A DNA stretch of 64,000 nucleotides from a plasmid. The stretch lies in NCBI RefSeq assembly GCF_055900595.2, contig NZ_JBVWEU010000002.1. One strand, 5' to 3'. Of this stretch, positions 6,303-49,475 are shown in pieces. Every line of letters begins with the position of its first letter. Within the stretch, counting starts at the first letter, position 1. The position numbers were made by a program, and so were the translations under genes. The notes under the pieces were generated by a model. It did no database searches, had not been told where the DNA came from, and was given only the letters and a program-made list of their open reading frames with translations.

Positions 6303-6968
6303 TTATGCCCCGTTATGAATGCAGGCGTCCTTCAAATTGCTGTCCGGTGTGACAGTTTTCGATGGTTGGTTGCAACGAGCATCTTCTGTCTCTTTCATCC
6401 TGGCGTTATAACGCTGCGTGTGTTTTTCAAGTTTTGCCTGCGCATACAGCGCTTCTTCCTCCGTTACAGTTCCATGAACTTTGCCATCCAGACCATAACG
6501 CGGAGTACCTGCGACTGATATACGCTGCAGATATTTGTAACCGCCAGTAATCATCCTTACAGCACAATTCCATTCTTTTACAGTTAGTCCACACTCAGGA
6601 CTGGCCGAAATAAAAGCCATGACATCCTTTGAGATGCCTATTTTAAATGCATGATATCCCCCCTCTTCAGCCCGTAACTGAGGGAATGTTTTTTTAACAC
6701 AGTCCAGACTGTGTCGGATAAACTCATGATTCCATCTATTGTTCTTCTTTTTTTTCTTCTTCTTACGTCCTGTTTTTTTCTGTTGTTCCGGGGAACCGGC
6801 CACTGTGGCTGGTATTTCAGGAGGTAATGAGTCGGTTTTAAATTCCATTACTGGCGCTGGTTTTATATCATCAGGAACTGCCTGTACAGCATCATCCTGA
6901 TGAGAAAGAATTCGTCTTTTTTTCTTAATAATAACAACAGGTGACGGTTTCTTTGTAACACTGCCCAT
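6303..6968 (-). CDS. ProQ/FinO-domain RNA-binding protein with a Lys-rich, low-complexity N-terminal region
   Basis: The C-terminal part FPQLR..YHAFKIGISKDVMAFI..GLTVKEWNCAVRMITGGYKYLQRISVAGTPRYGLDGKVHGTVTEEEALYAQAKLEK follows the ProQ/FinO N-terminal-domain pattern (FP..F..PLKIGI..DL....LSK..LR.AL..YT.S.RYL....G..R.DLDG...G.VT.E). The start at 6968 (GAGGTG SD) is preferred over the ATG at 7004. Confidence 0.75.
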   Translation of the reverse strand: MGSVTKKPSPVVIIKKKRRILSHQDDAVQAVPDDIKPAPVMEFKTDSLPPEIPATVAGSPEQQKKTGRKKKKKKKNNRWNHEFIRHSLDCVKKTFPQLRAEEGGYHAFKIGISKDVMAFISASPECGLTVKEWNCAVRMITGGYKYLQRISVAGTPRYGLDGKVHGTVTEEEALYAQAKLEKHTQRYNARMKETEDARCNQPSKTVTPDSNLKDACIHNGA

Positions 6969-7070
6969 ATACACACCTCTGCGTATCGTTAATATATAAT
7001 GCACGACATACAGATAGTATATATCTGAGTCGGTAAAGTCACCAACAGAAGAATAATAACATGTATTTCA

Positions 7071-7349
7071 TTACTGTTCGCGAATTATCACTCTGGATTC
7101 CTTCCTGGTGACATAAGTACAGTTATCAGGTACATCTTCCATAATAAAAGACATTGCCCCGATTTTAACATTACTTCCGATTTTCACATTTAACCCAATA
7201 ATACATGTATGGGCACCAATATCGACATTATCACCAATAACAATATAGTTTTCCCTACTGTCAGAAACCTTTTCACCAATGGTTGTATTCTGCCGTATAA
7301 TGACATTCTCACCGATATCAACATTACCATGAATGACGATTCCTGCATG
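7071..7349 (-). pseudogene. Hexapeptide-repeat (LbH) acetyltransferase, C-terminal fragment (serine-acetyltransferase/WcaB-like)
   Basis: Minus-strand translation from 7340 reads IVIHGNVDIGENVIIRQNTTIGEKVSDSRENYIVIGDNVDIGAHTCIIGLNVKIGSNVKIGAMSFIMEDVPDNCTYVTRKESRVIIREQ*. It abuts the IS1 IRR at 7350. The N-terminal half is at 22358-22678. Confidence 0.8.
7341..7349. repeat. Target-site duplication TCCTGCATG, left copy
   Basis: The identical 9-mer, in the same orientation, occurs at 22358-22366 immediately outside the other IS1 IRR. Confidence 0.85.
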
Positions 7350-7630
7350 GGTAATGACTCCAACTTATTGATAGTGTTTTATGTTCAGATAATGCCCGAT
7401 GACTTTGTCATGCAGCTCCACCGATTTTGAGAACGACAGCGACTTCCGTCCCAGCCGTGCCAGGTGCTGCCTCAGGTTCAGGTTATGCCGCTCAATTCGC
7501 TGCGTATATCGCTTGCTGATTACGTGCAGCTTTCCCTTCAGGCGGGATTCATACAGCGGCCAGCCATCCGTCATCCATATCACCACGTCAAAGGGTGACA
7601 GCAGGCTCATAAGACGCCCCAGCGTCGCCA
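7350..7630 (-). mobile_element. IS1 fragment (IRR plus the 3' part of insB, 281 bp)
   Basis: The sequence and encoded ...[88 protein letters not shown] match IS1 InsB. Similarity stops at 7630. Confidence 0.9.
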
Positions 7631-8486
<856 letters not shown>

Positions 8487-8741
8487 TAATTACACTGTGG
8501 GTTGACGCCGGAAGAATCAGAGAACAGATACCGTTCTTACTGTAAAACGTGGCTAATATTAATTGAGCACTGCAGTGTTCAGAGCACAAAGAAGAAAAAA
8601 GATGTGTGCGAATGCCTGTAATGTGTTAAAAGAATGTTCCGCGTTTCCGGTACGCTTTTCGTAACTAACAATGCAGGGTGACGTAACGCTGGTTGTGCCG
8701 GAAACGCGTCCCTCCCCCTATCTTTCCTGTTTGGATTTGCC

Positions 8742-8900
8742 CCTATATTTCTGGATTATCCGACAAAACCGGCGTGAAGTATTACTCTCGTCGCCCAGCA
8801 CCATAAGGATAACGCCCATAAAATCATGAAACTTTTCTTCCAGATTGGATACAATCAGGCCGAAACGGTGATGAATATTATCCAAATCTGATGGTTCGTA
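8742..8900 (-). mobile_element. IS2-group right-end remnant (terminal repeat plus the last codons of a transposase)
   Basis: TGGATTTGCCCCTATATTTC at 8742 equals the IS2 IRR complement for 20 nt. The minus strand reads ..YPYGAGRRE.YFTPVLSDNPEI*, resembling the IS2 InsD C-terminus (..LGYRSPREY..LSDNRCLEI*). Confidence 0.5.
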
Positions 8901-9095
8901 GCGTTTTCAGCCCCCAGATTCTGAGTTGCCTGTAGGGATGATTTCAATTCCCGATTTGTCTATCGCATAGAGAAAAAGAATTTCATTTCTGTTCACCAGA
9001 ACCCATGTAACCCACTCCAATTCGTTATTTATCTCACTGATTGCCCTTCATTTATCTCATTGATGCACCGAAAGGTAAAACTGCCATCCGGTGCA

Positions 9096-10025
9096 TCACG
9101 CTCGATGCATCAAATCCTGATAAATCCCCGTCAGTATTCCTTGTAAGCTAAATTCTCTTTTTATCCACTGAGTGACTTGACCGCTTGCCGAATGCCTGGT
9201 TGCCAACAGCATTCGTGAATCCTGACGTGGGTTGTGGATCTGCCGTGTCACCAGCAATGACTTTTCCATCGCTTCACGCACCATATAGTCTGGCAGAAAA
9301 CCGATTCCCTCCCCCAAGATCTGGCACTGAAGCTTAGTATTAAAGTCGGGAACCAGAATCGACTCTTGCCCGTGTAACAGCCAGCCGACTTTTTTGTTTA
9401 TAGTGTTTGCAGTGTCTTCCACCATGATGTTCGGGTACAGACGTAACTGACTCTCAGAAATGGGCTCAGGAATAAACGCCAGCGGATGAGCCGGAGAAAT
9501 CGCGAACAACCAACGAATCATGCCGATTTCAATGTAATCAATTCCACCACCGTCCAGTAACGTATCGGGCGCGCCAATGGCGATATCAGCCTGGTTATTA
9601 ATGAGTGAATCCCAGACGCCATTATACACCTCTGTAGTAATAGCTATCTGGCAGGTTGGAAAGTGTTCCCTGAGCACTTGCAGAAGCCGAGCTGTATGCT
9701 GAGGGGTATACAACAGTTGATTAATACAAATGCGCACCCGGGATTTAATTCCCTGAGCGATGGCATCAACTCTACGTATGATGGAGTGGTAATCGTTGAG
9801 CAGGTCAGTTGCTTTGCAAAAAAGGTAGTGCCCGGGCTCGGTCAGCTCAATGCTACGGGTAGTTCGGGTAAAAAGCACCACGTCAAGCCCCATTTCCATA
9901 CGCTTGATAGTGTAACTAATTGCCGATGTGGTTAAGCCCAGTTCCTTCGCCGCCTTGCTGAAACTTCTATAGCGGGCAGCCATAGTAAATGCCAGTAAGT
10001 TTTCTTCCGTAAATATTGAATTCAT
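9096..10025 (-). CDS. LysR-family transcriptional regulator (YahB/AllS-like), divergent from the ankyrin-to-carbamate-kinase operon
   Basis: MNSIFTEENLLAFTMAARYRSFSKAAKELGLTTSAISYTIKRMEMGLDVVLFTR is the HTH, followed by a LysR effector domain. The start at 10025 has a GAGGAAAG SD. The longer ORF to 10154 is rejected. Confidence 0.85.
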   Translation of the reverse strand: MNSIFTEENLLAFTMAARYRSFSKAAKELGLTTSAISYTIKRMEMGLDVVLFTRTTRSIELTEPGHYLFCKATDLLNDYHSIIRRVDAIAQGIKSRVRICINQLLYTPQHTARLLQVLREHFPTCQIAITTEVYNGVWDSLINNQADIAIGAPDTLLDGGGIDYIEIGMIRWLFAISPAHPLAFIPEPISESQLRLYPNIMVEDTANTINKKVGWLLHGQESILVPDFNTKLQCQILGEGIGFLPDYMVREAMEKSLLVTRQIHNPRQDSRMLLATRHSASGQVTQWIKREFSLQGILTGIYQDLMHRA

Positions 10026-10412
10026 CTTTCTTTCCTCTGGCGACAATACACATACACAACATGATGATTGTTGAATGTATTTGTAATTCTTATAACCGAC
10101 AATCAGTTTTGAAAAAACTAACACCGTATTTACATTTAATTTGAAGGAAATCACACATCTGAATTTTAATTACAGGCAGCTATCCGTGCTGCAGACCACC
10201 TTTATTTATATGACTGCGGATTAATGGCTAAAATATCCCCAGCTATAATAGAAATATTGCACTATATCACACTCTCTTATTATTGTTAATTTTGTTTCAA
10301 TAATTCATGGTCTAATGATGAGTAAATTTTAAATGGATGGTGCTCTATGCATTCTGTTGCTATTCTTGGCTTGTTATATTTGTAAAATCTTAAAAAGAGC
10401 AGGAGATCGATT

Positions 10413-11018
10413 ATGTCCAATAAAGAACTCATTACAGAATTTCTGCTGGCGGCAGAACAAGGTAATTCCGATGGATTAAAATCATGCCTTGATAAAAAGG
10501 TTGATATTAATGCGACTAACCGCGAGGGGCGTACTGCAATTATTATTGCCAGTCTGAATAAACATTATGACTGCGTTTCTTTATTGATTTCCGCAGGTGC
10601 TGATATTAATAAACAAGATCAAACTTGTTTTAATCCCTTCCTGATTGGCTGCCTGAATAATGATTTAACACTGTTGCGTACGGTATTACCGGCTAACCCC
10701 GACCTTAATTGCCTAACCCGTTTTGGCGGTGTTGGTATTACACCTGCCTGCGAAAAAGGCCATGTCGAGATTGTACGTGAATTGCTGATGCGTACTGATA
10801 TCAATGTCAACCATACTAATTTTGTTGGCTGGACGCCGCTCCTAGAGGCCATCGTGCTGAATGACGGCGGTGAAAAGCAGCAGGAGATCGTCAAACTGTT
10901 GCTTGAGCATGGCGCAAACCCGCACATGACGGATAAATACGGTAAAACCCCGCTGGAGCTGGCGCGAGAAAAAGGCTACCACAAAATTGCCGAGTTGCTG
11001 ATTTCGGCTGGAGCCTGA
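10413..11018 (+). CDS. Ankyrin-repeat protein (YahD-like), 201 aa
   Basis: Repeated G.TALI.A...GH...V.LLI.AGADIN and TPL..A motifs; GGAG SD. The length matches E. coli K-12 YahD as I recall it. Confidence 0.85.
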   Translation: MSNKELITEFLLAAEQGNSDGLKSCLDKKVDINATNREGRTAIIIASLNKHYDCVSLLISAGADINKQDQTCFNPFLIGCLNNDLTLLRTVLPANPDLNCLTRFGGVGITPACEKGHVEIVRELLMRTDINVNHTNFVGWTPLLEAIVLNDGGEKQQEIVKLLLEHGANPHMTDKYGKTPLELAREKGYHKIAELLISAGA

Positions 11019-11103
11019 CAACAGGAGCACGATTATCGCTATATTATCACGGCAATCTTTTCGGGCACTAACCGCAGACTGCGCGTTTCTCACTTTTCGG
11101 GGA

Positions 11104-11952
11104 ATGGGCCAGGTTGAACAGGTTTTTTCCCATGCGGTAAATCTGTTAATACCTGAACAGCAGCGACTGCTGACGTTACTGAGTGAGGATTGTGATAACG
11201 CACCTAACAGTTGTCGTTTAGCACTGACACATTATGAAGACCTTTTTCACCCCGGTGAACAGGTCAATTTTAGCGGGTCTGGAATAACTGTTGGAAATGA
11301 TAAATGGATAGAAATAACCGGTTGTCAGATGTGGCGAATACCACGGTGGACATCTGATTCAGCAAGCCTTGCCAAAGTCGGCTGGCAGCATTGGGAAGAG
11401 TTTATCCGCCAACAACTAAGAAGCAACGACACATTATTTCTGTACCAGGGTGACAATCCATTTTATCAGGAAATTTCTCGCCAATTACTCAACCGCCGAA
11501 AAAATTTGCTGAAGGCGTTGTGTACAGGAGAAAACATCACTGCGGCAGTCAACCAGTTAATTGGTCTTGGAATAGGGCTGACGCCATCATCGGATGATTA
11601 TTTAGTAGGTTTAAGCACTATTTTATTTATTCAAGGACATCCACTAAGGAAGTATAGATACGATTTCTTAGCAGCATTACAACTTGCAGGAAATAACATA
11701 ACGCTTCTCAGCAAAATAACGTTAGAGGAAGCATTTAATCAGCGTTATCGGGAAAGAGTCGGACGGCTACTGAACCAATTTATTACTGAGCCACAACCCA
11801 TTTCTACGCAATATGTTACTGACATAAAAAATATAGGCTCAAGTTCTGGATGCGACATGCTGTATGGCATGGCGGATGCCTGCGCCCTGAGCCACAGGTC
11901 CGGAGGTAATTATGTCAATCAGGATAGTTGTAAAAAAAAACACGTATTTTGA
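11104..11952 (+). CDS. DUF2877-family protein (YahE/YlbF-like)
   Basis: 282 aa with LIGLGIGLTPSSDDYLVGL and GSSSGCDMLYG motifs typical of DUF2877. It overlaps the next gene by 41 nt. Confidence 0.75.
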   Translation: MGQVEQVFSHAVNLLIPEQQRLLTLLSEDCDNAPNSCRLALTHYEDLFHPGEQVNFSGSGITVGNDKWIEITGCQMWRIPRWTSDSASLAKVGWQHWEEFIRQQLRSNDTLFLYQGDNPFYQEISRQLLNRRKNLLKALCTGENITAAVNQLIGLGIGLTPSSDDYLVGLSTILFIQGHPLRKYRYDFLAALQLAGNNITLLSKITLEEAFNQRYRERVGRLLNQFITEPQPISTQYVTDIKNIGSSSGCDMLYGMADACALSHRSGGNYVNQDSCKKKHVF

Positions 11953-13459
11953 TTCTGTTTCACTGATGTCTATCTCCACGCGCGCAAATAAGCTTGATGG
12001 AGTTGAGCAGGCATTTGTTGCTATGGCGACAGAGATGAATAAGGGGGTGCTGAAGAATCTCGGTCTGCTGACCCCTGAGCTGGAAGAGGCGAAAAGTGGC
12101 GATCTGATGATTGTCATTAAAGGTACCAGCGAGGAGGCGAACGAGCGGACGCTAATAGCGATTGATGAGCTGTTTGCGCATAAAGAACAGGGAGGCCAGC
12201 ACGAAGCACGCTATGCCACGATTGCCAGTGCGAAGAAGCATGCTCCAGAGAGTAATCTGGCGGTGATCTCTGTCAATGGCCTGTTTGCTGCTCGTGAAGC
12301 TCGTCAGGCACTACAAAATAACCTCAATGTTATGCTGTTTTCTGACAACGTCTCTCTTGAGGACGAGCTGGAACTCAAGCATCTGGCACATGAAAAAGGG
12401 TTGTTGATGATGGGGCCTGATTGTGGAACCGCCATCATTAACGGCGCAGCGTTGTGTTTTGGCAATGCAGTGCGTCGCGGCAACATCGGAATCATTGGTG
12501 CCTCCGGTACGGGTAGCCAGGAGCTGAGCGTACGCATTCACGAATTTGGCGGCGGGATTTCCCAGCTGATTGGGACAGGTGGACGCGATATGAGTGAAAA
12601 AATTGGCGGCCTGATGATGCTTGACGCGATTAGCATGCTGGAGGCCGATCCACAAACTGAGATCATTACGCTTATATCCAAACCTCCTGCACCAGCGGTA
12701 GCCCGTAAGGTGCTGGAACGTGCGCGCACCTGTCACAAGCCTGTGGTGGTGTGTTTCCTCGGACGTGAGTCCACCCCTGCGGATGAAGAAGGCCTACAGT
12801 TTGCCCGCGGTACTAAAGAGGCTGCCTTGAAAGCGGTACTGTTGACTGGTGTGAAAAAAGAGAGTCTGGATTTGCATCCGCTCAACTGGCAGCTGATTGA
12901 AGAGGTTCGCTCCCGTCTGACTCCACAACAAAAGTATATCCGTGGCCTGTTCTGTGGTGGCACGTTATGCGATGAAGCGATGTTTACTGCCATGGAAAAA
13001 CTCTCGGATGTGTATAGCAATATTCACCCGAATCCGGCGTTCCGCCTTACAGATCTCAACCGTAGCGTGGCGCATACCTTCCTCGATTTCGGCGATGATT
13101 ATTTTACCAACGGCAAACCACATCCGATGATCGATCCCACCAATCGCATTACCCGGCTCTTGCAGGAAGCACAGGATCCTGAAGTTGGCGTGATCGTGAT
13201 GGACTTCATTCTTGGATTTGGATCACATGAAGATCCGGTTGGAGTGATGCTGGATACAATTGTTGAAGCCAAAGAAATTGCTGCCGCAGACGGTCGCCCG
13301 CTTGAGATCCTCGGCTATGTGCTGGGAACCGACCTTGATACACCGTCGCTGAAAAAACAGTGTCAGATGTTGACCGATGCCGGGGTTATTTGGGCAAGCA
13401 GTAGCACCAACACCGGATTACTGGCACGTGAATTTATATTTAAAGGGGAGGAAGGCTGA
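11912..13459 (+). CDS. FdrA/YahF-like protein (succinyl-CoA-ligase-alpha / NDP-forming acyl-CoA-synthetase fold), 515 aa
   Basis: The N-terminus MSIRIVVKKNTYFDSVSLMSISTRANKLDGVEQAFVAMATEMNKGVLKNLGLLTPELE is near-identical to my recollection of K-12 YahF. CoA-ligase glycine loops IIGASGTGSQE and GTGGRD are present. Confidence 0.85.
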   Translation: MSIRIVVKKNTYFDSVSLMSISTRANKLDGVEQAFVAMATEMNKGVLKNLGLLTPELEEAKSGDLMIVIKGTSEEANERTLIAIDELFAHKEQGGQHEARYATIASAKKHAPESNLAVISVNGLFAAREARQALQNNLNVMLFSDNVSLEDELELKHLAHEKGLLMMGPDCGTAIINGAALCFGNAVRRGNIGIIGASGTGSQELSVRIHEFGGGISQLIGTGGRDMSEKIGGLMMLDAISMLEADPQTEIITLISKPPAPAVARKVLERARTCHKPVVVCFLGRESTPADEEGLQFARGTKEAALKAVLLTGVKKESLDLHPLNWQLIEEVRSRLTPQQKYIRGLFCGGTLCDEAMFTAMEKLSDVYSNIHPNPAFRLTDLNRSVAHTFLDFGDDYFTNGKPHPMIDPTNRITRLLQEAQDPEVGVIVMDFILGFGSHEDPVGVMLDTIVEAKEIAAADGRPLEILGYVLGTDLDTPSLKKQCQMLTDAGVIWASSSTNTGLLAREFIFKGEEG

Positions 13460-14877
13460 TGAGCCAGACACTGTTTAATCAGCCGCTGAACGTTATTAAT
13501 GTCGGTATCGAAATGTTCAGCGATGACATGAAAAAGCAGAATGTACCGGTAACCCAACTTGACTGGACACCGCCAGGCCAAGGAAACATACAAGTGGTAA
13601 CGGCACTGGACGACATTGCCGCTTCACCACTGGCAGACAAAATTGCAGCTGCTAATCAGCTGGCGCTGGAACGCATTATCCAGTCGCATCCTGTGCTAAT
13701 TGGCTATGATCAGGCGATCAACGTCGTGCCGGGTATGACCCGTAACACTATCCTTCACGCCGGGCCGCCAATCCACTGGGAAAAAATGTGCGGCGCAATG
13801 AAGGGCGCAGTAACCGGGGCTCTGGTATTTGAAGGACTGGCGAAAGATCTGGATGATGCCGCCGAACTAGCTGCTTCAGGTGAAATCATCTTCTCTCCGT
13901 GCCACGAACATGACTGTGTCGGCTCAATGGCGGGTGTCACGTCTGCATCGATGTTTATGCACATCGTCGAGAACAAAACCTATGGAAACCGCGCATATAC
14001 CAATATGAGCGAGCAGATGGCAAAGATCCTGCGTATGGGCGCTAACGACCAGAGCGTTATAGAGCGTCTTAACTGGATGCGAGATGTACTGGGACCTATG
14101 TTGCGCGATGCTATGAAGCTGGCGGGCGAAATCGATCTGCACTTGATGTTAGCGCAGGCGCTGCATATGGGCGATGAGTGCCATAACCGCAACAACGCCG
14201 GGACGGCGCTGCTGATTCAGACGCTGACGCCGTGGATTATTCAGACTGGCTACCCTGTTGAGCAGCAGCGTGAGGTGTTCGAGTTTGTCCTCAGTAGTGA
14301 TTACTTCTCAGGACCAACATGGATGGCAATGTGTAAAGCCGCAATGGACGCTGCGCACGGCATTGAATACAGCACCGTGGTGACAACGATGGCACGCAAT
14401 GGTGTTGAGTTCGGTCTTCGTATTAGCGGTTTGCCGGGCCAGTGGTTTACCGGTCCGGCGCAGCAGGTGATTGGGCCGATGTTTGCGGGCTATAAGCTAG
14501 AGGATTCCGGACGTGATATCGGTGATAGTGCAATTACCGAAACCTACGGCGTTGGCGGTTTCGCTATGGCGACGGCACCAGCTATTGTGTCACTGGTGGG
14601 CGGAACAGTTGAGGAAGCTATTGATTTCTCACGTAAAATGAGAGAAATCACTCTCGGAGAAAACCCCAACGTCACCATTCCCCTGCTTGGTTTTATGGGC
14701 GTACCGACCGCTATCGATATTACACGTGTAGGCAGTACAGGCATTCTGCCGGTAATTAACACAGCCATTGCGCACAAAGACGCAGGGATCGGCATGATCG
14801 GCGCAGGAATTGTTCACCCGCCGTTCACTTGTTTTGAAAAGGCGATCCTCAACTGGCGTGACCACTACTGCCAATAA
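13459..14877 (+). CDS. DUF1116-family protein (YahG/YlbE-like), 472 aa
   Basis: Its start overlaps the previous stop (TGATG). Size and position after the FdrA-like gene match yahG/ylbE. Confidence 0.8.
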   Translation: MSQTLFNQPLNVINVGIEMFSDDMKKQNVPVTQLDWTPPGQGNIQVVTALDDIAASPLADKIAAANQLALERIIQSHPVLIGYDQAINVVPGMTRNTILHAGPPIHWEKMCGAMKGAVTGALVFEGLAKDLDDAAELAASGEIIFSPCHEHDCVGSMAGVTSASMFMHIVENKTYGNRAYTNMSEQMAKILRMGANDQSVIERLNWMRDVLGPMLRDAMKLAGEIDLHLMLAQALHMGDECHNRNNAGTALLIQTLTPWIIQTGYPVEQQREVFEFVLSSDYFSGPTWMAMCKAAMDAAHGIEYSTVVTTMARNGVEFGLRISGLPGQWFTGPAQQVIGPMFAGYKLEDSGRDIGDSAITETYGVGGFAMATAPAIVSLVGGTVEEAIDFSRKMREITLGENPNVTIPLLGFMGVPTAIDITRVGSTGILPVINTAIAHKDAGIGMIGAGIVHPPFTCFEKAILNWRDHYCQ

Positions 14878-14989
14878 CAATAACCGGGGCTAACGCAGTT
14901 AGCCCCACAGTAGCGGAAAACGTTGTTTACCTTCAGGGCTGGGCGATCTCCATGATCGCAAACGATGCTTAACCTGTTAAGGAGATTCC

Positions 14990-16540
14990 ATGAACAGCAT
15001 AAAACTAGAATGGAAACGTGGTGACTGGGCGGCTTACTTTGGACTGATGACCAACAATCTGACTAACCTGCTGACAATGATGGGTCTGCTAATTTTTGTC
15101 GTCGGAATCCCTACTGAAATTGTCTATGGACGCATTGCGCCTGCCTTTGGTCTTGCAGTGCTGGCGGCCAGTGTCTGCTACTCCTGGTTTGGTCTACAGA
15201 TGGTGAAGAAAACCGGTCGTAGCGATGTAACGGCGCTGCCGTCTGGACCGAGCGCACCCTCAATCTTTACCGTGACATTCCTGGTGCTGATGCCGGTTTA
15301 TCAGCAAACCAAAGATGCCAACTTTGCTATTCAGATAGGATTGGTGTGGTGCTTTGTCGAAGCGTTGATCCTGGTCGGTGGCTCCTTCCTGGGTGAGACT
15401 ATCCGCAAGATGATCCCGCGTACAGTGCTGCTTTCTTGTCTGTCCGGACTGGGGTTATTACTGCTGGCAATGAACCCGATGCTGCAAGCGTTCGAAGCGC
15501 CGACAGTTTCTTTCATCGTCCTGTTATTGATCTTCATTAACTGGTTCGGTAAGAAGCCGATTTTTCCCCATATTCCTACCGGTTTGCTGTTGCTGATTGC
15601 TGGTACGTCCCTAGCGTGGATATCCGGTTTACAAAGCCCGGAAGACATTAAAGCGTCGATGTCTTCCTTCGGCTTCAACCCGCCGGAAATTCATGTAAGG
15701 AGCTTCCTGCAAGGTTTGCCGCACGCTCTGCCATATCTGGCTTCTGCAGTTCCTTTGGGCCTGGCTAACTACATTTTTGACCTCGAGAACATTGAAAGTG
15801 CGCACGCGGCTGGTGATGAATACAACACCCGTAAGGTCATGATGGCGAACGGCTTTGCCTCCATGCTCGGTTGCATGCTGGGTAATCCGTTCCCGGTAAC
15901 CGTATATGTTGGGCATGCAGGCTGGAAAGCTATGGGCGCTAGTATCTGCTATACCCTCGCATCAGGCATCACTATGTTCCTGGTGCCATTGTTTGGGTTG
16001 GGCGCGTTTATGCTCGCCATTATTCCCATGACTGCTATAGTGCCAATTCTGGTTTTTATCGGTGTGGTAACCGCCAATCAGGTGGTGCGAGAAACTCCTA
16101 AAGTCGAGGTTCCCGTCATTTTCATCTGTCTGTTCCCATGGGTCGCCAACTGGGCATTGACCATCGTTAACAGCGTGATGGGCGCAGCCGGAACATCCGC
16201 TGAGAAACTTGGTAGCGACCTGTTGCACAGCAAAGGCGTCTATTACGATGGACTGATGCATCTGGGAAGCGGTGCACCGCTGGCCAGCATGCTGTGGGGA
16301 TGCATTGCTATCTTTGCCATTATGAATAAGCCGCTGCGCGGGGCGATAGCTGCATCCTTTGGAGCACTGTTATCGCTGTTTGGCGTGATTCACTCCCCAG
16401 CGGTTGGCTTTGCGGAAGGCAGCTCGATTGTGTTTGTTGTGGCCTACCTGATGATGCTTGCTATGTTTGCCCTCAAGCATGTTATTGATAGCCGTGAAAC
16501 AGTGGCTGCGTCTGAGCAGGAAGAGACTAAAACGACCTGA
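14990..16540 (+). CDS. Polytopic permease, NCS2/AzgA-like (xanthine/uracil permease superfamily), 516 aa
   Basis: More than 12 hydrophobic segments, AGGAG SD, embedded between the DUF1116 and carbamate kinase genes. The family call rests on overall pattern only. Confidence 0.65.
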   Translation: MNSIKLEWKRGDWAAYFGLMTNNLTNLLTMMGLLIFVVGIPTEIVYGRIAPAFGLAVLAASVCYSWFGLQMVKKTGRSDVTALPSGPSAPSIFTVTFLVLMPVYQQTKDANFAIQIGLVWCFVEALILVGGSFLGETIRKMIPRTVLLSCLSGLGLLLLAMNPMLQAFEAPTVSFIVLLLIFINWFGKKPIFPHIPTGLLLLIAGTSLAWISGLQSPEDIKASMSSFGFNPPEIHVRSFLQGLPHALPYLASAVPLGLANYIFDLENIESAHAAGDEYNTRKVMMANGFASMLGCMLGNPFPVTVYVGHAGWKAMGASICYTLASGITMFLVPLFGLGAFMLAIIPMTAIVPILVFIGVVTANQVVRETPKVEVPVIFICLFPWVANWALTIVNSVMGAAGTSAEKLGSDLLHSKGVYYDGLMHLGSGAPLASMLWGCIAIFAIMNKPLRGAIAASFGALLSLFGVIHSPAVGFAEGSSIVFVVAYLMMLAMFALKHVIDSRETVAASEQEETKTT

Positions 16541-16566
16541 ATAGCCTGCAAACGGAAGATAATTCT

Positions 16567-17529
16567 ATGAAAGAACTTGTGGTCGTTGCCATTGGTGGCA
16601 ACAGCATTATCAAAGATAACGCCAGCCAGTCGATTGAGCATCAGGCGGAGGCGGTGAAGGCCGTCGCCGATACGGTTCTGGAAATGCTGGCTTCCGATTA
16701 CGACATTGTGCTGACCCACGGCAACGGGCCGCAGGTCGGTCTGGATTTACGCCGCGCGGAGATAGCCCACGAGCGCGAAGGGCTACCCTTAACGCCGCTG
16801 GCGAACTGTGTGGCGGATACGCAAGGCGGCATTGGCTATCTGATCCAGCAGGCGCTGAACAACCGGCTGGCGCCTCACGGCGAGAAAAAAGCCGTCACCG
16901 TGGTGACTCAGGTGGAAGTGGATAAAAACGATCCGGGGTTTGTCCATCCCACCAAGCCCATCGGTGCATTCTTTAGTGAAAACCAGCGTGATGAACTACA
17001 AAAGGCAAACCCTGACTGGCGTTTTGTTGAAGATGCCGGACGGGGCTATCGCCGCGTGGTCGCCTCGCCGGAACCGAAACGTATTGTCGAAGCACCTGCC
17101 ATTAAGACTCTGATCCAGCAAGGCTTTGTGGTGATTGGCGCGGGCGGCGGTGGCATTCCGGTGGTGCGTACTGACGCAGGGGATTACCAAAGCGTGGACG
17201 CGGTTATCGACAAAGATCTCTCTAGCGCGCTACTGGCTCGCGAAATTCACGCCGACATTCTGGTGATCACCACCGGCGTGGAAAAAGTGAGTATTCATTT
17301 TGGGAAACCCAACCAGCATGCACTGGATACAGTGGATGTCCTAACGATGGCCCGTTACATGCAGGAGGGTCACTTCCCGCCTGGGAGTATGTTACCGAAG
17401 ATTCTTGCCAGTCTGGAGTTCCTGGAACGTGGAGGTAAAAGAGTGATTATCACCACGCCTGAATGCCTGTCCGCGGCACTGCGTGGCGAAACAGGCACCC
17501 ATATTATCCACTCCCAAGAGGAGACGTAA
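16567..17529 (+). CDS. Carbamate kinase (YahI/YqeA/ArcC-like), 320 aa
   Basis: VVAIGGNS, THGNGPQVG, GYRRVVASPEP, GGGGIPV and DKDLSSALLA motifs are characteristic of carbamate kinases. Confidence 0.9.
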   Translation: MKELVVVAIGGNSIIKDNASQSIEHQAEAVKAVADTVLEMLASDYDIVLTHGNGPQVGLDLRRAEIAHEREGLPLTPLANCVADTQGGIGYLIQQALNNRLAPHGEKKAVTVVTQVEVDKNDPGFVHPTKPIGAFFSENQRDELQKANPDWRFVEDAGRGYRRVVASPEPKRIVEAPAIKTLIQQGFVVIGAGGGGIPVVRTDAGDYQSVDAVIDKDLSSALLAREIHADILVITTGVEKVSIHFGKPNQHALDTVDVLTMARYMQEGHFPPGSMLPKILASLEFLERGGKRVIITTPECLSAALRGETGTHIIHSQEET

Positions 17530-17699
17530 ATTAAGGAAAGCGACCGCCGCCGTGAATTTTTAATGTTCATTGCAGATTATCGTGGGCTGGAAATGATAAC
17601 GGTTGGGGAGTTATTGTTTAGTTGCTAAAACAGAACGATAACCAACCCCAACCGTTCTCAATTTCGAATACTATCTTTTCCATTTATCTCTGGATAGGC

Positions 17700-18315
17700 T
17701 TTGACGTCGTCCCTACTGAGTAAAATCCCCCTCATCATCCACCTAAAACCGATTGAAAACGGTCATTACTCTTGTGGCAAACAGGCTAAAGCCGTTCACG
17801 ATGCTTCACTTCGCACCTTATCGTAATGAACAATACTGGTATTTCCAGTTCAGTTACGCCTACCCGTCTACCGCATTCTTTGCCCTAACTACGGCATAGT
17901 TCGGGATTATATCAGCTGGCTAAAGCCTTATGCTCATCAGACCACATGACTCATTGAGCATGTTGAGGCGTTACTCAAAATCTTGCCGATTAAACATATT
18001 TCGTAATTTCTTACCCTGCACTAGCATATCATCAATACTATCGACAAACGTCAGTTGCAAATAGAGGTCACAGGGTCTGATTGATGTACTGCCAAGGCCG
18101 GGTCATGAAAGAGTTTGCCCTGTTCAAAGCTCATCGTTACGCACCGTCGTAGCCGATGCGGATACTCATCAATCCTCTGGATAGGTGAGGTGCGTAGTAG
18201 AGAAGCTCGGTCGTTTTTCGTTAATCTGAATCAGTACTGTCAACATATTCAAGTCGTTAATATGGATATGAATACCTCCTTTGACCTAGAGGTACAGATG
18301 CACTACCCCCCAAGC
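17700..18315 (+). pseudogene. ISL3-family transposase remnant A (multiple stops), cut off by an IS100 end
   Basis: Decayed frames show ..CPNYGIV..WLKPYAHQTT.., ..KEFALFKAHRYA.. and LWIGEVRSREA..FF..L....I..VNMDMNTSFDLEVQ.H.P, the ISL3 order of motifs. Confidence 0.5.
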
Positions 18316-18337
18316 TGTCAACGACGGATGAAAAGTG
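18316..18337 (+). repeat. Orphan IS100 terminal inverted repeat (22 bp)
   Basis: TGTCAACGACGGATGAAAAGTG is identical to the first 22 nt of the complete IS100 copy at 20039. Confidence 0.7.
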
Positions 18338-19630
18338 GCTCTTCCGCAACCTGGATGGAGATTTTCATGCCAGTGGACTCATGACCCTCTGCCTGAGTAG
18401 TTCAAATCCGGCTCGACCATACATCTGGCCTTTCAGCATTTTTAGCCAATTTACATGACTTTCGACACCCCCCATTATTCCAGCGACTGCTGATTGCCTC
18501 ACATATAGCCGCAGCATCAGCTGCCATCCTTGCAGCCACGCGCCGAAGTTACCACTTTCTCGTTGCTCTTTTAACCACTCCCTCCATGGGTCCAGAAGTC
18601 CTCACTCTGGAGGCCGGGTTGACATTTCAGGGAATGTTCCTGAACACACCCAGAGACTGTCTGTCACACGTGATAAGCCTGTAATACGGGATAAGCCTGT
18701 AATACGGGATATTTCCCCTGAACCCACATCCCTTGTTATGTAGTGCCATAACCTCTGTCCAACGCTGATGCCGTTTTTGGCGGGTTTGCTGTTTAAGGCG
18801 TTCCGGACGACGGAGCGATGCTACAGGCACAGACAGTACTGGCTTAGGTGATTTCTTTGGTGACAACCCACTGGCAACAAGACGTATCAGAGGCATCTGT
18901 CTGTACATCATTCGTTCAGGCGCATCGCCAATATTTTTTAGCCGGTGCCATCGAGCTGCTATCTGTCTGGCCTGAGGTGCACCTTCACGTGATGCTGTCG
19001 CATAGACTCCGCCACGGTCACATGAGACAACCTGTATTTCCGGATATTTTCTGAACCAGGTCGCCAGCGTACTCTGCTCGCAACCGGGAAGCAGGACGAG
19101 GGGACGGTGAGTATAAAGATTGACGATTAACGTACCGTAATGGTAGCCCCGATGCCACGCCCACTCATCAATACCGACATGAGGCGCGCCTGACTGTTTC
19201 GTCTCCGGGGTATTAATAACCCTGCGAAGAAGAGTATCAGCACTGCAACGGAGCCCCACTGCCGTTGCTGCCTGTTTCCCGGCCTCACCTCCGGCTATTA
19301 ATCCCAGTTGATGTTGTAAATTTTGTAACACCTGTGAAGAATGCTGGGAGTGAACCGGCGAAGGGGGCAAGCGACCCGGCAAAAATTTTACGTGAACAAG
19401 CCGGGTTACGGCAGTACCAGTGGCGGACGGAAAATACAAGCCATAGCGTCTGCCCTGAGCAGGGTAGATGCTGTATCCGGCGCCGACGATAACTATGAAC
19501 AGAGTCGCTACGCTTAAAGCATTCAGGACTTGTGCTGTTTTGCGTTTTCCGTGGAGATGGAGGGTTATACCGTCAGAGCTAATAATTTGTCGACTGCATC
19601 TCCATCCGCAAGGTAACTGTAGAAGTGTCT
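18338..19630 (-). mobile_element. ISL3-family element B (~1.29 kb) with a frameshifted transposase; it abuts the IS1 IRL
   Basis: Ends GGCTCTTCCGCAACCTGGATGGAGAT (18337-) and AGACACTTCT...GCGGATGGAGAT (complement, from 19630). The minus-strand frames carry CPECF..SVHSYRRR..HLP, GIDEWAW..HYGTLIVNL, CDRGG, ARWHRLKN and a C-terminal NWLKMLKGQMYGRAGFELLRQRV. Confidence 0.6.
18673..18708. repeat. Perfect tandem duplication of an 18-bp unit (ATAAGCCTGTAATACGGG x2) inside the ISL3-B transposase pseudogene
   Basis: Read directly from the sequence. It encodes the duplicated IPYYRL. Confidence 0.9.
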
Positions 19631-19685
19631 GGTGATGCTGCCAACTTACTGATTTAGTGTATGATGGTGTTTTTGAGGTGCTCCA

Positions 19686-21992
<2,307 letters not shown>

Positions 21993-22342
21993 CTAAATCG
22001 CGCCAGCGCTGGCTGTTTTACGCGTATGACAGTCTCCGGAAGACGGTTGTTGCGCACGTATTCGGTGAACGCACTATGGCGACGCTGGGGCGTCTTATGA
22101 GCCTGCTGTCACCCTTTGACGTGGTGATATGGATGACGGATGGCTGGCCGCTGTATGAATCCCGCCTGAAGGGAAAGCTGCACGTAATCAGCAAGCGATA
22201 TACGCAGCGAATTGAGCGGCATAACCTGAATCTGAGGCAGCACCTGGCACGGCTGGGACGGAAGTCGCTGTCGTTTTCAAAATCGGTGGAGCTGCATGAC
22301 AAAGTCATCGGGCATTATCTGAACATAAAACACTATCAATAA
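21993..22342 (+). pseudogene. insB: IS1 insB, 3' part separated from its 5' part by IS100
   Basis: Encodes [35 protein letters not shown]...NIKHYQ*. Confidence 0.85.
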
Positions 22343-22357
22343 GTTGGAGTCATTACC

Positions 22358-22366
22358 TCCTGCATG
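22358..22366. repeat. Target-site duplication TCCTGCATG, right copy
   Basis: Identical to 7341-7349. Confidence 0.85.
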
Positions 22367-22678
22367 ATGAGGTAACATGAGGCCTTTACCAATCCGCGCG
22401 CCCAGGCCGATATCACATCCATACCGTTCCATAAGTGCATTTTTTATCTTTATCGCACATTTCCTTTGTTTTTGGTTTCCAGAGATAAACATCTCATTGG
22501 CCAGGCGCCACCACATCAGAAAGCCTCGTTGTCTCTGCAACCCGTTTCTTATCAGGCGGTGTAAGACAAACTTATCCCGCATGATGACTTCGGCTTTCCA
22601 GTATTCTGACAGATTACGACTTTTACCTGACAATAAAAAGGTGGCAATATGAAAATAAGCTAATGGATTTTTCATCAT
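22358..22678 (-). pseudogene. Hexapeptide-repeat acetyltransferase, N-terminal fragment (107 codons)
   Basis: MMKNPLAYFHIATFLL...ALMERYGCDIGLGARIGKGLMLPHHAG, then the IS1 IRR. It continues in frame at 7340 once one 9-mer copy and the transposon are removed. Confidence 0.8.
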
Positions 22679-47172: not shown

Positions 47173-48714
47173 ATGCCAACAGTTCCAATTTCTATGAGAA
47201 AACTTAAAGAAATTCTTAGGCTTAAATACGGTGTTGGACTCAGCCATCGACAAATTGGTCGTAGTCTTGCAATCTCCCCTTCCGTTGTATCCAGATATGC
47301 TAATCGGGCGGCTCAACTTGGCATAAAGCAGTGGCCCTTACCTACAGGATGGGATGATACAAAACTAAAACATGCGTTCCTTCAGACCCAGGTTAAGATG
47401 AAGAAGCACTCTCTGCCTGACTGGGCTACAGTACACCGGGAACTGCGTAATAAATGCGTGACGCTGCAGCTACTCTGGGAAGAATACTGTGAGCGTAATC
47501 CAGGCGGTTTTTACAGCTATAACCATTACTGCCGGATGTACCGTGAATGGCTCAAAACCACTTCACCATCAATGCGTCAGGTACATAAAGCTGGCGAAAA
47601 ACTTTTCGTTGATTACTGTGGACCTACCGTTGGCGTTACCGACCCTGAGACCGGAGAAATAAGAACTGCTCAGGTCATCGTAGCTGTTCTCGGGGCATCA
47701 AGTTACACATGGGCAGAGGCCACCTGGTCTCAGCAGCTTGAAGACTGGGTGATGAGTCATGTTCGCTGCTTCCAGTGGTTGGGTGGCGTTCCTGAACTTG
47801 TTGTTCCGGACAATCTGAAAAGCGCCACATCCAGGGCATGTAAGTATGATCCTGACGTTAACCCTACCTACCAGCAGATGCTTGAGCATTATAATGTCGC
47901 AGTTTTGCCTGCGCGGCCACGTAAACCGAAAGATAAAGCCAAAGCTGAAGTTGGCGTTCAGGTTGTTGAACGCTGGATCATGGCCCGAATCAGGCATGAG
48001 ATCTTCTACAGCCTTGCATCGCTTAATCAGCGCATTCGGGAGTTGCTGGAAAGACTGAATAACAAAATAATGCAGAAGTTGGGTTATTCACGTGCAGAAC
48101 TCTTCATCCAGCTTGATAAACCCGCACTGAAGCCTCTTCCTGAAGCCAGTTACAGTTACACCCTGGTGAAGAAAGTCAGAGTTCATGCCGATTACCACGT
48201 GGAAATCGACAAACATTACTACTCGGTTCCATGTTCGCTGTTAGGCCAGCAACTGGAAGCATGGATCTCCGGAGAACTGGTAAGACTCTTCAATCAGGGG
48301 CAGGAGGTTGCTGTGCACCCGCGCAAGCGTACTTATGGCTACAGTACCCGCAACGAGCACATGCCTGAAGCTCATCGACAGCATGCCACCTGGACGCCAG
48401 AGCGTCTTCTGGAATGGGCGGGGCACATAGGCAGTGAAACTCATAGTTATGTGCTTCATATACTGAACTCTCGTCCACATCCGGAACAAAGCTATCGCTT
48501 CTGCCTTGGACTCCTGAACCTTCATAAAAAATACAGTAAAGCCAGACTTAATGCAGCATGTGCAAGAGCTCTGAAAACAAAGGTATGGCGTCTGTCAGGT
48601 ATTAAATCGATCCTGGAAAAAGGTCTGGATAAACAACCTGTTCAGGATCCAAAACCAGATCTGTTATCCACGATGGAACACGAAAACGTACGCGGCAGTG
48701 AGTATTACCACTGA
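47173..48714 (+). CDS. istA: IS21-family IstA transposase (513 aa)
   Basis: N-terminal HTH (LSHRQIGRSLAISPSVVSRY) and a DDE region (..DYCGPTV.., ..PDNLKSA..). Confidence 0.88.
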   Translation: MPTVPISMRKLKEILRLKYGVGLSHRQIGRSLAISPSVVSRYANRAAQLGIKQWPLPTGWDDTKLKHAFLQTQVKMKKHSLPDWATVHRELRNKCVTLQLLWEEYCERNPGGFYSYNHYCRMYREWLKTTSPSMRQVHKAGEKLFVDYCGPTVGVTDPETGEIRTAQVIVAVLGASSYTWAEATWSQQLEDWVMSHVRCFQWLGGVPELVVPDNLKSATSRACKYDPDVNPTYQQMLEHYNVAVLPARPRKPKDKAKAEVGVQVVERWIMARIRHEIFYSLASLNQRIRELLERLNNKIMQKLGYSRAELFIQLDKPALKPLPEASYSYTLVKKVRVHADYHVEIDKHYYSVPCSLLGQQLEAWISGELVRLFNQGQEVAVHPRKRTYGYSTRNEHMPEAHRQHATWTPERLLEWAGHIGSETHSYVLHILNSRPHPEQSYRFCLGLLNLHKKYSKARLNAACARALKTKVWRLSGIKSILEKGLDKQPVQDPKPDLLSTMEHENVRGSEYYH

Positions 48715-48725
48715 TACGGGATCCA

Positions 48726-49475
48726 ATGATGAATCATCTTTACGAACAACTGACCGCACTTAAACTCACCGGCTTCCGTGATGCGCTTAAAAAGCAACTT
48801 GCTCAGCCGGGCACATACCAGGAGCTGGGCTTCGAAGAACGCCTGTCATTACTGACAGCAGAAGAACTAACCTGCCGTGAAAACAGGAAGGCAGAGCGTC
48901 TGATCAAACATGCACGGTTCAGACTTAATGCTGAGTTATCAAAGCTGGATTATCGTAACAATAGAGGGCTGGACAGGGCCCTCATCCGTTCACTCAGTCA
49001 GGGAAACTGGTTAACCCTGAAACAAAATATTTTACTGACCGGGGCCACCGGCAGCGGTAAAACGTTCCTGGCATGTGCACTTGGTCATAATGCCTGCCGA
49101 CAGGGATACAAGGTCTACTATTATCGCCTTAAAGCGCTGATGGAACAGTGCTATCAGGGGCATGCTGATGGAAGATACAGCAAACTTTTGACCAGGCTGA
49201 ATAATAGCGATCTGCTGCTTCTGGATGACTGGGGGCTGGAACCTCTCTCATCAGAACAGCGTAGCGACCTGCTGGAAATAGTGGATCTGATGTACCAACG
49301 AGGCTCAATCATCGTAGTGAGCCAGTTGCCGGTGGAAAACTGGTACAAAATGATCGGAGACTCCACACATGCGGATGCCATCCTAGATCGACTGGTTCAT
49401 GGCAGTATCAAGATCGAACTTAAAGGAGAATCAATGCGGAAAATACAATCTCCGTTGACCGAAGGAGATCAGTGA
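48726..49475 (+). CDS. istB: IS21-family IstB ATPase helper (249 aa)
   Basis: Walker A GATGSGKT and Walker B LLLLDDWG. Confidence 0.88.
   Translation: MMNHLYEQLTALKLTGFRDALKKQLAQPGTYQELGFEERLSLLTAEELTCRENRKAERLIKHARFRLNAELSKLDYRNNRGLDRALIRSLSQGNWLTLKQNILLTGATGSGKTFLACALGHNACRQGYKVYYYRLKALMEQCYQGHADGRYSKLLTRLNNSDLLLLDDWGLEPLSSEQRSDLLEIVDLMYQRGSIIVVSQLPVENWYKMIGDSTHADAILDRLVHGSIKIELKGESMRKIQSPLTEGDQ

Follow-up and report, generated by a model that had tools for sequence, protein, structure and literature searches.

We analyzed a 64,000-nucleotide (nt) stretch of a plasmid (NCBI RefSeq assembly GCF_055900595.2, contig NZ_JBVWEU010000002.1), hereafter called the window, in which positions 9096 to 17529 hold a module of seven genes related to the yah locus of Escherichia coli. 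The first gene, on the minus strand (9096-10025), encodes a LysR-type regulator of 309 amino acids (aa), the orthologue of YahB, with the Pfam domains HTH_1 and LysR_substrate. Its reading frame is open as far as a GTG codon at 10154 (9096-10154, minus strand), and 9096-10025 is better taken as the gene, judging from the RefSeq start and the alignment with YahB.

Across the intergenic region at 10026-10412, the other genes run divergently on the plus strand. An ankyrin-repeat protein of 201 aa (10413-11018; Pfam Ank_2, Ank and Ank_4), the YahD orthologue, has no signal peptide visible in its sequence and is predicted to be cytoplasmic. It is followed by the AllH-like (DUF2877) subunit, a YahE orthologue of 282 aa (11104-11952; Pfam AllH, E = 1.2e-22); the AllF/FdrA-like subunit, a YahF orthologue of 515 aa (11912-13459; NCBIfam FdrA, 490 bits against a cut-off of 433), which also matches Pfam CoA_binding and Ligase_CoA; and the AllG-like (DUF1116) subunit, a YahG orthologue of 472 aa (13459-14877; Pfam AllG, E = 4e-90). 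Pfam now names DUF1116 and DUF2877 AllG and AllH, respectively. Proteins of the AllF, AllG and AllH families are therefore encoded together in the module, each scoring above the curated cut-off. A membrane transporter of 516 aa with a predicted UraA-type 7+7 fold (14990-16540; AlphaFold2 and Foldseek) and a carbamate kinase of 320 aa, the YahI orthologue (16567-17529; NCBIfam PRK12352, 629 bits against a cut-off of 266), complete the module. With the stricter arcC equivalog model TIGR00746, the kinase scored 346 bits, slightly under the cut-off of 358.

The seven open reading frames and their sizes agreed with the initial annotation, as did the tight coupling from which it had argued for a functional operon: the AllH-like and AllF-like genes overlap by 41 nt (11912-11952, from the coordinates), and a TGATG junction joins the AllF-like and AllG-like genes at 13457-13461 (read directly from the sequence). 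All module products align end to end with their orthologues without internal stops, inactivating lesions were looked for and none was found, and RefSeq marks none of the seven genes as a pseudogene. The ratio of nonsynonymous to synonymous substitution rates (dN/dS) against the Citrobacter orthologues was 0.03 to 0.19 across all seven genes, which points to purifying selection on each of them.

The AllG-like gene is separated from the permease gene by 112 nt, and this spacer contains a perfect GC-rich hairpin, GGGGCTAACGCAGTTAGCCCC, at 14886-14906. No T-run follows the hairpin on the coding strand, and it may be an mRNA-processing or stabilizing element rather than a terminator. A scan of promoters and terminators gave counts equal to the shuffled expectation.

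Kinship with the Yah proteins and with AllFGH

Using the proteins of an E. coli B chromosome for comparison, we found by BLASTP that all module products are nearer to the Yah proteins (54-93% identity) than to the All proteins or to the proteins of a second cluster on the plasmid, described below (38-48%). The LysR regulator is 84% identical to YahB over 308 aa and 39% identical to AllS, and its score with the AllS equivalog model was 267.6 bits, below the cut-off of 372. The corresponding values are 83% for YahF and 38% for AllF, 90% for YahG and 46% for AllG, and 93% for YahI and 39% for AllK. The AllH-like protein is 54% identical to YahE, and the ankyrin protein is 72% identical to YahD and has no All counterpart.

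The likeness to the yah locus that had been pointed out in the initial annotation extends to the arrangement of the genes. In the module, a divergent LysR gene precedes Ank-AllH-AllF-AllG-...-CK (CK, carbamate kinase) in one direction, and the E. coli chromosomal locus, yahB-yahC / yahD-E-F-G-(yahH)-I-J, has the orthologues in the same order and orientation. The plasmid copy differs in that it has the 516-aa transporter where the chromosome has an array of repetitive extragenic palindromic (REP) sequences (yahH), lacks yahC and retains yahJ only as an 11-codon remnant. The yahE-G and yahI parts of the module have a match at about 82% nt identity in about 4970 complete E. coli chromosomes; the match falls into two pieces, and the permease gene is skipped.

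It had also been claimed that the module parallels the fdrA-ylbE-ylbF-ybcF quartet of the allantoin regulon, a set proposed to handle an oxalurate/oxamate-type compound. The parallel was borne out by paralogy to AllFGH and AllK (38-46% identity; AllH by Pfam family). For the All counterpart, "proposed" is outdated: AllF-AllG-AllH has been purified and is an oxamic transcarbamylase, which interconverts oxalurate plus phosphate and oxamate plus carbamoyl phosphate (PMC11326118). AllFGH, encoded in an operon with allK (ybcF), was recognized in 2024 as a new three-subunit type of transcarbamylase (PMC11326118), and YbcF/AllK is a catabolic carbamate kinase (PMC9843812).

The module shares with the allFGHK operon the three subunit families, the carbamate kinase and a LysR regulator related to AllS. 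The gene order is H-F-G in the module and F-G-H in allFGHK, and the Yah type adds the ankyrin gene and a dedicated transporter. While allFGHK belongs to the allantoin regulon, the Yah type lies outside it: the module sits between insertion sequence (IS) elements, not beside allECD, and its chromosomal orthologues are not next to all genes either. The module is an intact, mobile, uncharacterized member of the AllFGH/carbamate-kinase kind of pathway and not a new kind of system.

The boundary between the AllF and AllG proteins is shifted between the two types. In the All type, AllF (555 aa) ends with a stretch of about 45 residues that in the Yah type opens the AllG-like protein, which at 472 aa is longer than AllG (419 aa). 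This shift is a fusion-type hint that the AllF and AllG proteins may associate. The regions compared were 13459-13620 of the window and the AllF C-terminus (comparison stretch L003, 25360-25516). The GHAG phosphohistidine loop of succinyl-CoA synthetase was absent from the plasmid AllF-like protein, YahF and AllF, as judged against an unverified SucD reference sequence.

Linkage, family and fold of the permease

The permease had been described as an extra gene inserted between the AllG-like and carbamate kinase genes, and the distribution of its homologues contradicts that description. A scan for permease relatives with one genome per species gave 312, and the best 80, all of them Enterobacterales loci, were examined; the genera include Citrobacter, Serratia, Enterobacter, Leclercia, Lelliottia, Buttiauxella, Trabulsiella and Providencia. 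The order LysR<-Ank-(AllH)-AllF-AllG-permease-CK was found in 80/80 of these chromosomal loci, so the permease of the plasmid copy occupies the usual position. A YahJ-type amidohydrolase follows the kinase in 77/80, and two of the three loci without it are contigs that end just past the permease or within yahJ. The permease is also tied to AllF/AllG-like genes in six distant genera, Janthinobacterium, Brevibacillus, Bosea, Pasteurella, Neobacillus and Photobacterium. A carbamate kinase gene is linked too in five of the six; in Photobacterium, none was found within the 10 kb fetched. From Enterobacterales to Bacilli, the permease homologues are 62-95% identical. When the plasmid was compared with Brevibacillus or Janthinobacterium, the identity was 77-78% for the AllG-like protein, 71-78% for the permease and 67-73% for the AllF-like protein. 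Such high identity across phyla suggests either strong constraint or recent inter-phylum transfer.

We then considered the yahG-yahI spacer of the E. coli B chromosome, where yahH (comparison stretch L002, 10104-10400) is a 93-nt periodic array of the REP or bacterial interspersed mosaic element (BIME) type that translates to IAGCGVNALSGLR-like peptides. yahH is probably not a real gene. It was also rejected as a decayed permease, since tblastn and blastn found only the 93-nt periodic REP-like repeat. Because the permease is present in all 80 Enterobacterales loci and in the distant genera and has left no trace at yahH, the gene is ancestral, so that the plasmid copy has the normal architecture and the permease-less E. 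coli chromosome is the derived form.

The ankyrin protein is 90-92% identical to its Citrobacter orthologues, and every phylum examined has an ankyrin or ankyrin-tetratricopeptide repeat (TPR) gene alongside the module. The 201-aa protein gives way to an ankyrin-TPR fusion of 390-422 aa in Bosea, Photobacterium and Neobacillus (L093, 11685-12917; L096, 11571-12839; L095, 4399-5571), and the Bosea and Photobacterium fusions are 53% identical. This universality would fit a scaffold or assembly-factor role. The AllH-like protein is the fastest-evolving component, with 26-81% identity compared with 64-96% for the others.

The label "NCS2/AzgA-like" given to the permease in the initial annotation stands for the fold and fails for the sequence. 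Neither Pfam, even at E = 10, nor NCBIfam matches the 516-aa protein, and neither phmmer nor the family profile found a match in the PDB. None of 42 permease family members matches PF00860 (Xan_ur_permease), and hhalign gave a probability of 3.9% against GhxQ and 0.8% against XanQ. By profile search, the superfamily comprises 2733 clusters at 50% identity, 452 of them with E ≤ 1e-30. A Pfam transporter domain was not found in ten distant superfamily members, so that 0/52 scanned members match a Pfam transporter model. As far as these searches reach, the transporter belongs to a family without a Pfam model. Some of the distant relatives are fusion proteins, with RCC1-repeat domains in those of 1122 and 1137 aa and a methyltransferase domain in one of 795 aa.

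An AlphaFold2 model of the permease, built on 42 homologues, had a predicted local distance difference test (pLDDT) score of 85 and a predicted template modeling (pTM) score of 0.80, and is thus a confident one; it has short strands at residues 85-87 and 303-305, in keeping with those of TM3 and TM10 in the UraA fold. Foldseek against the PDB returned solely 7+7 inverted-repeat transporters (11-17% identity, E 1e-6 to 5e-4): SVCT1, UraA and UapA of NCS2/NAT, AZG2 of AzgA, BicA, SLC26Dg and prestin of SulP/SLC26, and Band 3 and Bor1 of SLC4. The SLC26/SulP and SLC4 structures match the model as well as the NCS2/AzgA ones. The permease, as modeled, has the UraA-type 7+7 fold, but this fold is common to several families and does not define one. 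The database label "xanthine permease" is unsupported, since no sequence method ties the protein to any subfamily.

Transposon, plasmid and origin of the copy

The module lies within a 15-kb segment (7350-22357) that was inserted as an IS1 composite transposon. At the left end, a shortened IS1 copy (7350-7630, minus strand) was recognized by its inverted self-match to the right copy and carries the end sequence GGTAATGACTCC at 7350. The right copy (19631-22357, plus strand; 19631-20039 and 21993-22357) has a perfect IS1 inverted repeat at 19631, matches the IS1 of plasmid pR2-2 and is interrupted by IS100 (20040-21992, from the istA/istB annotation). The terminal repeats at 7350 and 22357 face outward and are flanked by identical 9-bp target-site duplications, TCCTGCATG, read directly at 7341-7349 and 22358-22366. 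The insertion splits a serine acetyltransferase (hexapeptide-repeat) gene, one half of which lies at 7071-7349 on the minus strand (an incomplete coding sequence in RefSeq) and the other at 22358-22678. When the empty site was reconstructed with one copy of TCCTGCATG (401 nt), it matched the uninterrupted gene in other plasmids from end to end with 99.8% identity, and matches spanning at least 80% of its length were found in 60 plasmids. The IS1 ends, the 9-bp duplication and the empty sites in other plasmids confirm the earlier claim that the module sits inside a transposon.

This transposon is decaying. The left IS1 has a 626-bp internal deletion at 7630/7631, as seen against 18006-18632 of the otherwise identical plasmid pR2-2 (comparison stretch L011), in which the IS1 is full length, and because of this deletion the window copy is immobile through its left end. 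In addition to the right IS1 split by IS100, an IS3-family transposase fragment lies to the left of the module (7780-8410, plus strand), and a transposase fragment (18102-18309) and a frameshifted ISL3 transposase gene (18365-19586, minus strand) lie to the right, all three as annotated by RefSeq on an identical sequence.

The right end of the captured segment falls in yahJ. The nt homology to the Citrobacter braakii locus covers window positions 9068-17563 at 85.5% and stops 34 nt past the kinase stop codon, and no homology to the loci of Citrobacter and E. coli extends past 17559-17563. Positions 17530-17562 (plus strand) hold the first 11 codons of yahJ with the start mutated to ATT (IKESDRRREFL, compared with MKESNSRREFL in YahJ). 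From the extent of the homology and this remnant just past the kinase gene, it follows that the captured segment formerly ran into yahJ and was truncated. The absence of yahC and yahJ, pointed out earlier as a difference from the yah locus, is thus correct for both genes but has different grounds: yahJ is a truncation with a remnant, and yahC was found in E. coli only and is outside the canonical cluster.

The backbone of the window is an IncFII plasmid with tra genes. In PLSDB, the module is carried by 69 plasmids (65 from E. coli and 4 from Klebsiella), all of them predicted to be conjugative, in agreement with the plasmid type given in the initial annotation. Among 5426 complete E. coli genomes, 141 have the permease gene at ≥99% identity, in 105 plasmid and 45 chromosomal places, and all E. 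coli copies are one ≥99% allele. In the other annotated copies that were examined, too, the seven genes are intact. One chromosomal copy, that of strain 104, lies within an island and is flanked by the same IS3 fragment and ISL3 remnant. The carrier records include NC_007675.1, which we take to be pAPEC-O2-ColV; the module sequence is not new and has long been public.

No donor was found at ≥99% identity among the sampled species, the best being Citrobacter with 94-95% protein and 85.5% nt identity. The clusters of the Citrobacter freundii complex and other Enterobacterales share with the plasmid copy the whole gene order, permease included, and proteins of 74-96% identity. They lie on chromosomes and still have yahJ, whereas the plasmid copy is mobile, has lost yahJ and has a yahI-like kinase patch. 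The kinase gene is a mosaic: its first 600 nt share 93-96% identity with E. coli yahI and its last 300 nt 81%, while elsewhere the module is nearer to Citrobacter than to E. coli, with which it has 71-83% identity. The 5' patch suggests a gene conversion acquired in E. coli. The Yah-type cluster itself is chromosomal in many Enterobacterales and occurs also in Beta- and Alphaproteobacteria, Pasteurellaceae, Vibrionaceae and Bacilli. The region is a captured, right-end-truncated copy of the canonical Yah-type cluster in a decaying IS1 transposon on a conjugative IncFII plasmid.

Proposed pathway and alternative explanations

We favor, with moderate confidence, a pathway in which the Yah-type operon serves to import a carbamoyl (ureido) compound, cleave it with phosphate and recover ATP and NH3 through the carbamate kinase. 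The divergent LysR regulator would induce the operon on sensing the substrate or a substrate derivative, and the UraA-fold transporter would import an N-carbamoyl (ureido) compound or a heterocyclic precursor of such a compound. The ankyrin protein probably assembles or modulates the AllH/AllF/AllG-like complex, which would then cleave the carbamoyl group with phosphate to yield carbamoyl phosphate and the de-carbamoylated amine, and the kinase would convert carbamoyl phosphate and ADP to ATP, NH3 and CO2. This type of reaction is the most likely one by paralogy to AllFGH and AllK. The logic is shared with the arginine and agmatine deiminase pathways, which combine a transcarbamylase, a carbamate kinase and a precursor/product antiporter, so that a carbamoyl donor is imported and ATP is gained. 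Those pathways use single-gene transcarbamylases of the aspartate/ornithine transcarbamylase (ATCase/OTCase) fold and APC-type antiporters, whereas the putative transcarbamylase of the module is of the unrelated three-subunit AllFGH type.

The neighbors of the cluster bear on the substrate. YahJ is closest to AtzC (2e-43) and cytosine deaminase. Its start, MKESNSRREFLSQSGKMVTAAALFG...AHA (SRREFL...AHA/AYA; comparison stretches L002, 11436-11540, and L013, 12541-12640), reads as a twin-arginine (Tat) signal, which would imply a periplasmic amidohydrolase acting upstream or downstream of the cytoplasmic enzymes. The Bacilli loci have a guanine-deaminase-like CDA enzyme as neighbor, and NCS1 permeases and PucR regulators are among the recurrent neighbors of the distant loci. 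Together, these neighbors suggest that the substrate derives from the breakdown of a purine-, pyrimidine- or triazine-like ring with amino substituents and is not oxalurate itself.

Several points weigh against the proposed pathway. BLASTP gave no match between the AllH-like protein and AllH, and the identity to AllF, AllG and AllK is only 38-46%, so that the chemistry could differ. In the Enterobacter/Leclercia/Lelliottia/Silvania clade, the AllH-like gene is missing: about 107 nt (~6926-7033 of the comparison stretches L004, L027, L035, L040-L049 and others) separate the ankyrin and AllF-like genes, and there is no AllH copy within 10 kb. In E. coli, AllH is required for full oxamic transcarbamylase activity (PMC11326118). 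Since the module lacks YahJ, the pathway on the plasmid may be incomplete unless a chromosomal yahJ or a directly usable substrate fills the gap. The direction of transport is taken to be import, with export or antiport as the alternatives. In the literature on the yah genes, on DUF1116/DUF2877 and on the plasmid cluster, we found no functional study of any Yah-type protein.

The module could instead be a second system of oxamic transcarbamylase and carbamate kinase that has a transporter of its own for oxalurate (or oxalurate/oxamate). Such a system would boost the anaerobic use of allantoin or urate nitrogen, for example in the bird gut, which is rich in uric acid and from which many carrier strains came. 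The three subunit families and the carbamate kinase are those of AllFGHK, AllS is the best named match of the regulator, regulators of the PucR (purine catabolism) type flank the module in Bosea and Bacilli, and many carrier hosts are chicken, duck or turkey, as taken from raw host records. The low identity to AllF/G/K and an AllS score under the cut-off speak against it, as do the conserved deaminase-type partners (YahJ and CDA), which play no part in oxalurate cleavage. The allFGH-deleted K-12 strain presumably retains yahEFG. That this deletion strain makes no oxamate (PMC11326118) also counts against an oxalurate-cleaving Yah system, although the argument is weak, since yah is perhaps not expressed. 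We consider this explanation unlikely. It is highly improbable that the enzymes are an acyl-CoA synthetase, the function implied by the FdrA annotation, or carbamoylate an imported amine with carbamoyl phosphate in a biosynthetic reaction. The FdrA-like protein does have CoA_binding and CoA-ligase domains and the database name "acyl-CoA synthetase", and oxamic transcarbamylase has been assayed in vitro in the carbamoylating direction. However, the sole characterized member of the three-subunit family is a catabolic transcarbamylase (PMC11326118), no gene using a CoA thioester was found in the conserved neighborhood of the Enterobacterales loci, and linkage to carbamate kinase and deaminase genes is typical of catabolic, ATP-yielding pathways.

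It is also unlikely that the module is inert cargo, a cryptic and incomplete fragment without phenotype that hitch-hikes with IS elements and successful ColV/IncF plasmids. The truncated yahJ and the decayed IS elements nearby would agree with such a fragment, the single ≥99% allele in E. coli leaves selection after capture unmeasurable, and the chromosomal yah genes of K-12 are still among the uncharacterized "y-ome". On the other hand, none of the seven genes is disrupted in the window or in the annotated copies examined, 141 complete genomes retain the module, on plasmids and on chromosomes, despite the IS decay around it, and purifying selection was strong until capture. Within the proposed carbamoyl pathway, we regard as quite unlikely a split version, in which the plasmid gives the transporter lost by the chromosomal yah locus and the chromosome gives the Tat-exported YahJ lost by the plasmid. 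If this were true, the transposon would re-activate a cryptic, ATP-yielding catabolism of heterocyclic or ureido nitrogen for a compound abundant in the bird or mammalian gut, and the transporter would be the founding member of a new family of UraA-fold carriers, defined by their carbamoyl substrates.

The genes yahD-J are long-standing E. coli genes of unknown function, and the K-12 locus is a degraded version of a module that, when complete, always has a dedicated transporter and an ankyrin-type protein and usually a deaminase-like amidohydrolase. The Citrobacter or plasmid version would therefore be the better starting construct, and the list of candidate substrates is narrowed. The module also documents cargo of a metabolic kind, unrelated to resistance, which an IS1 composite transposon carries between ColV/IncF plasmids and chromosomal islands in E. 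coli from poultry and humans.

A second, paralogous AllFGH-like cluster is present on the plasmid. Its tail lies at 1-2758 of the window, with an allophanate-hydrolase C-terminal-domain protein (~155-544), an NCS1 "cytosine" permease (570-1790) and a LysR regulator (1868-2758), and its upstream part was seen in pR2-2 (L011, 4941-13119). The whole cluster encodes an isochorismatase-family hydrolase, AllH, AllF, AllG, carbamate kinase, the allophanate-hydrolase C-terminal-domain protein, the NCS1 permease and the LysR regulator, and it matches the tkt1 island of APEC O1 (PMC3349570) in which genes are present and how they are ordered. This cluster and the module have in common the AllH/F/G-like proteins, a carbamate kinase, a permease and a LysR regulator, but the proteins are only 42-48% identical. 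Where the second cluster has the isochorismatase-family hydrolase, the allophanate-hydrolase C-terminal domain and the NCS1 permease, the module has the ankyrin protein and the UraA-fold transporter. From its gene content, one may speculate that the substrate of the second cluster is of the biuret/allophanate type.

Elsewhere in the window, traX/traI/traD lie at ~28.9-37.1 kb. Beyond the tra genes, two plus-strand open reading frames (513 and 249 aa) at 47173-49475 stand amid a block of minus-strand open reading frames and look like an insertion, possibly an IS element.

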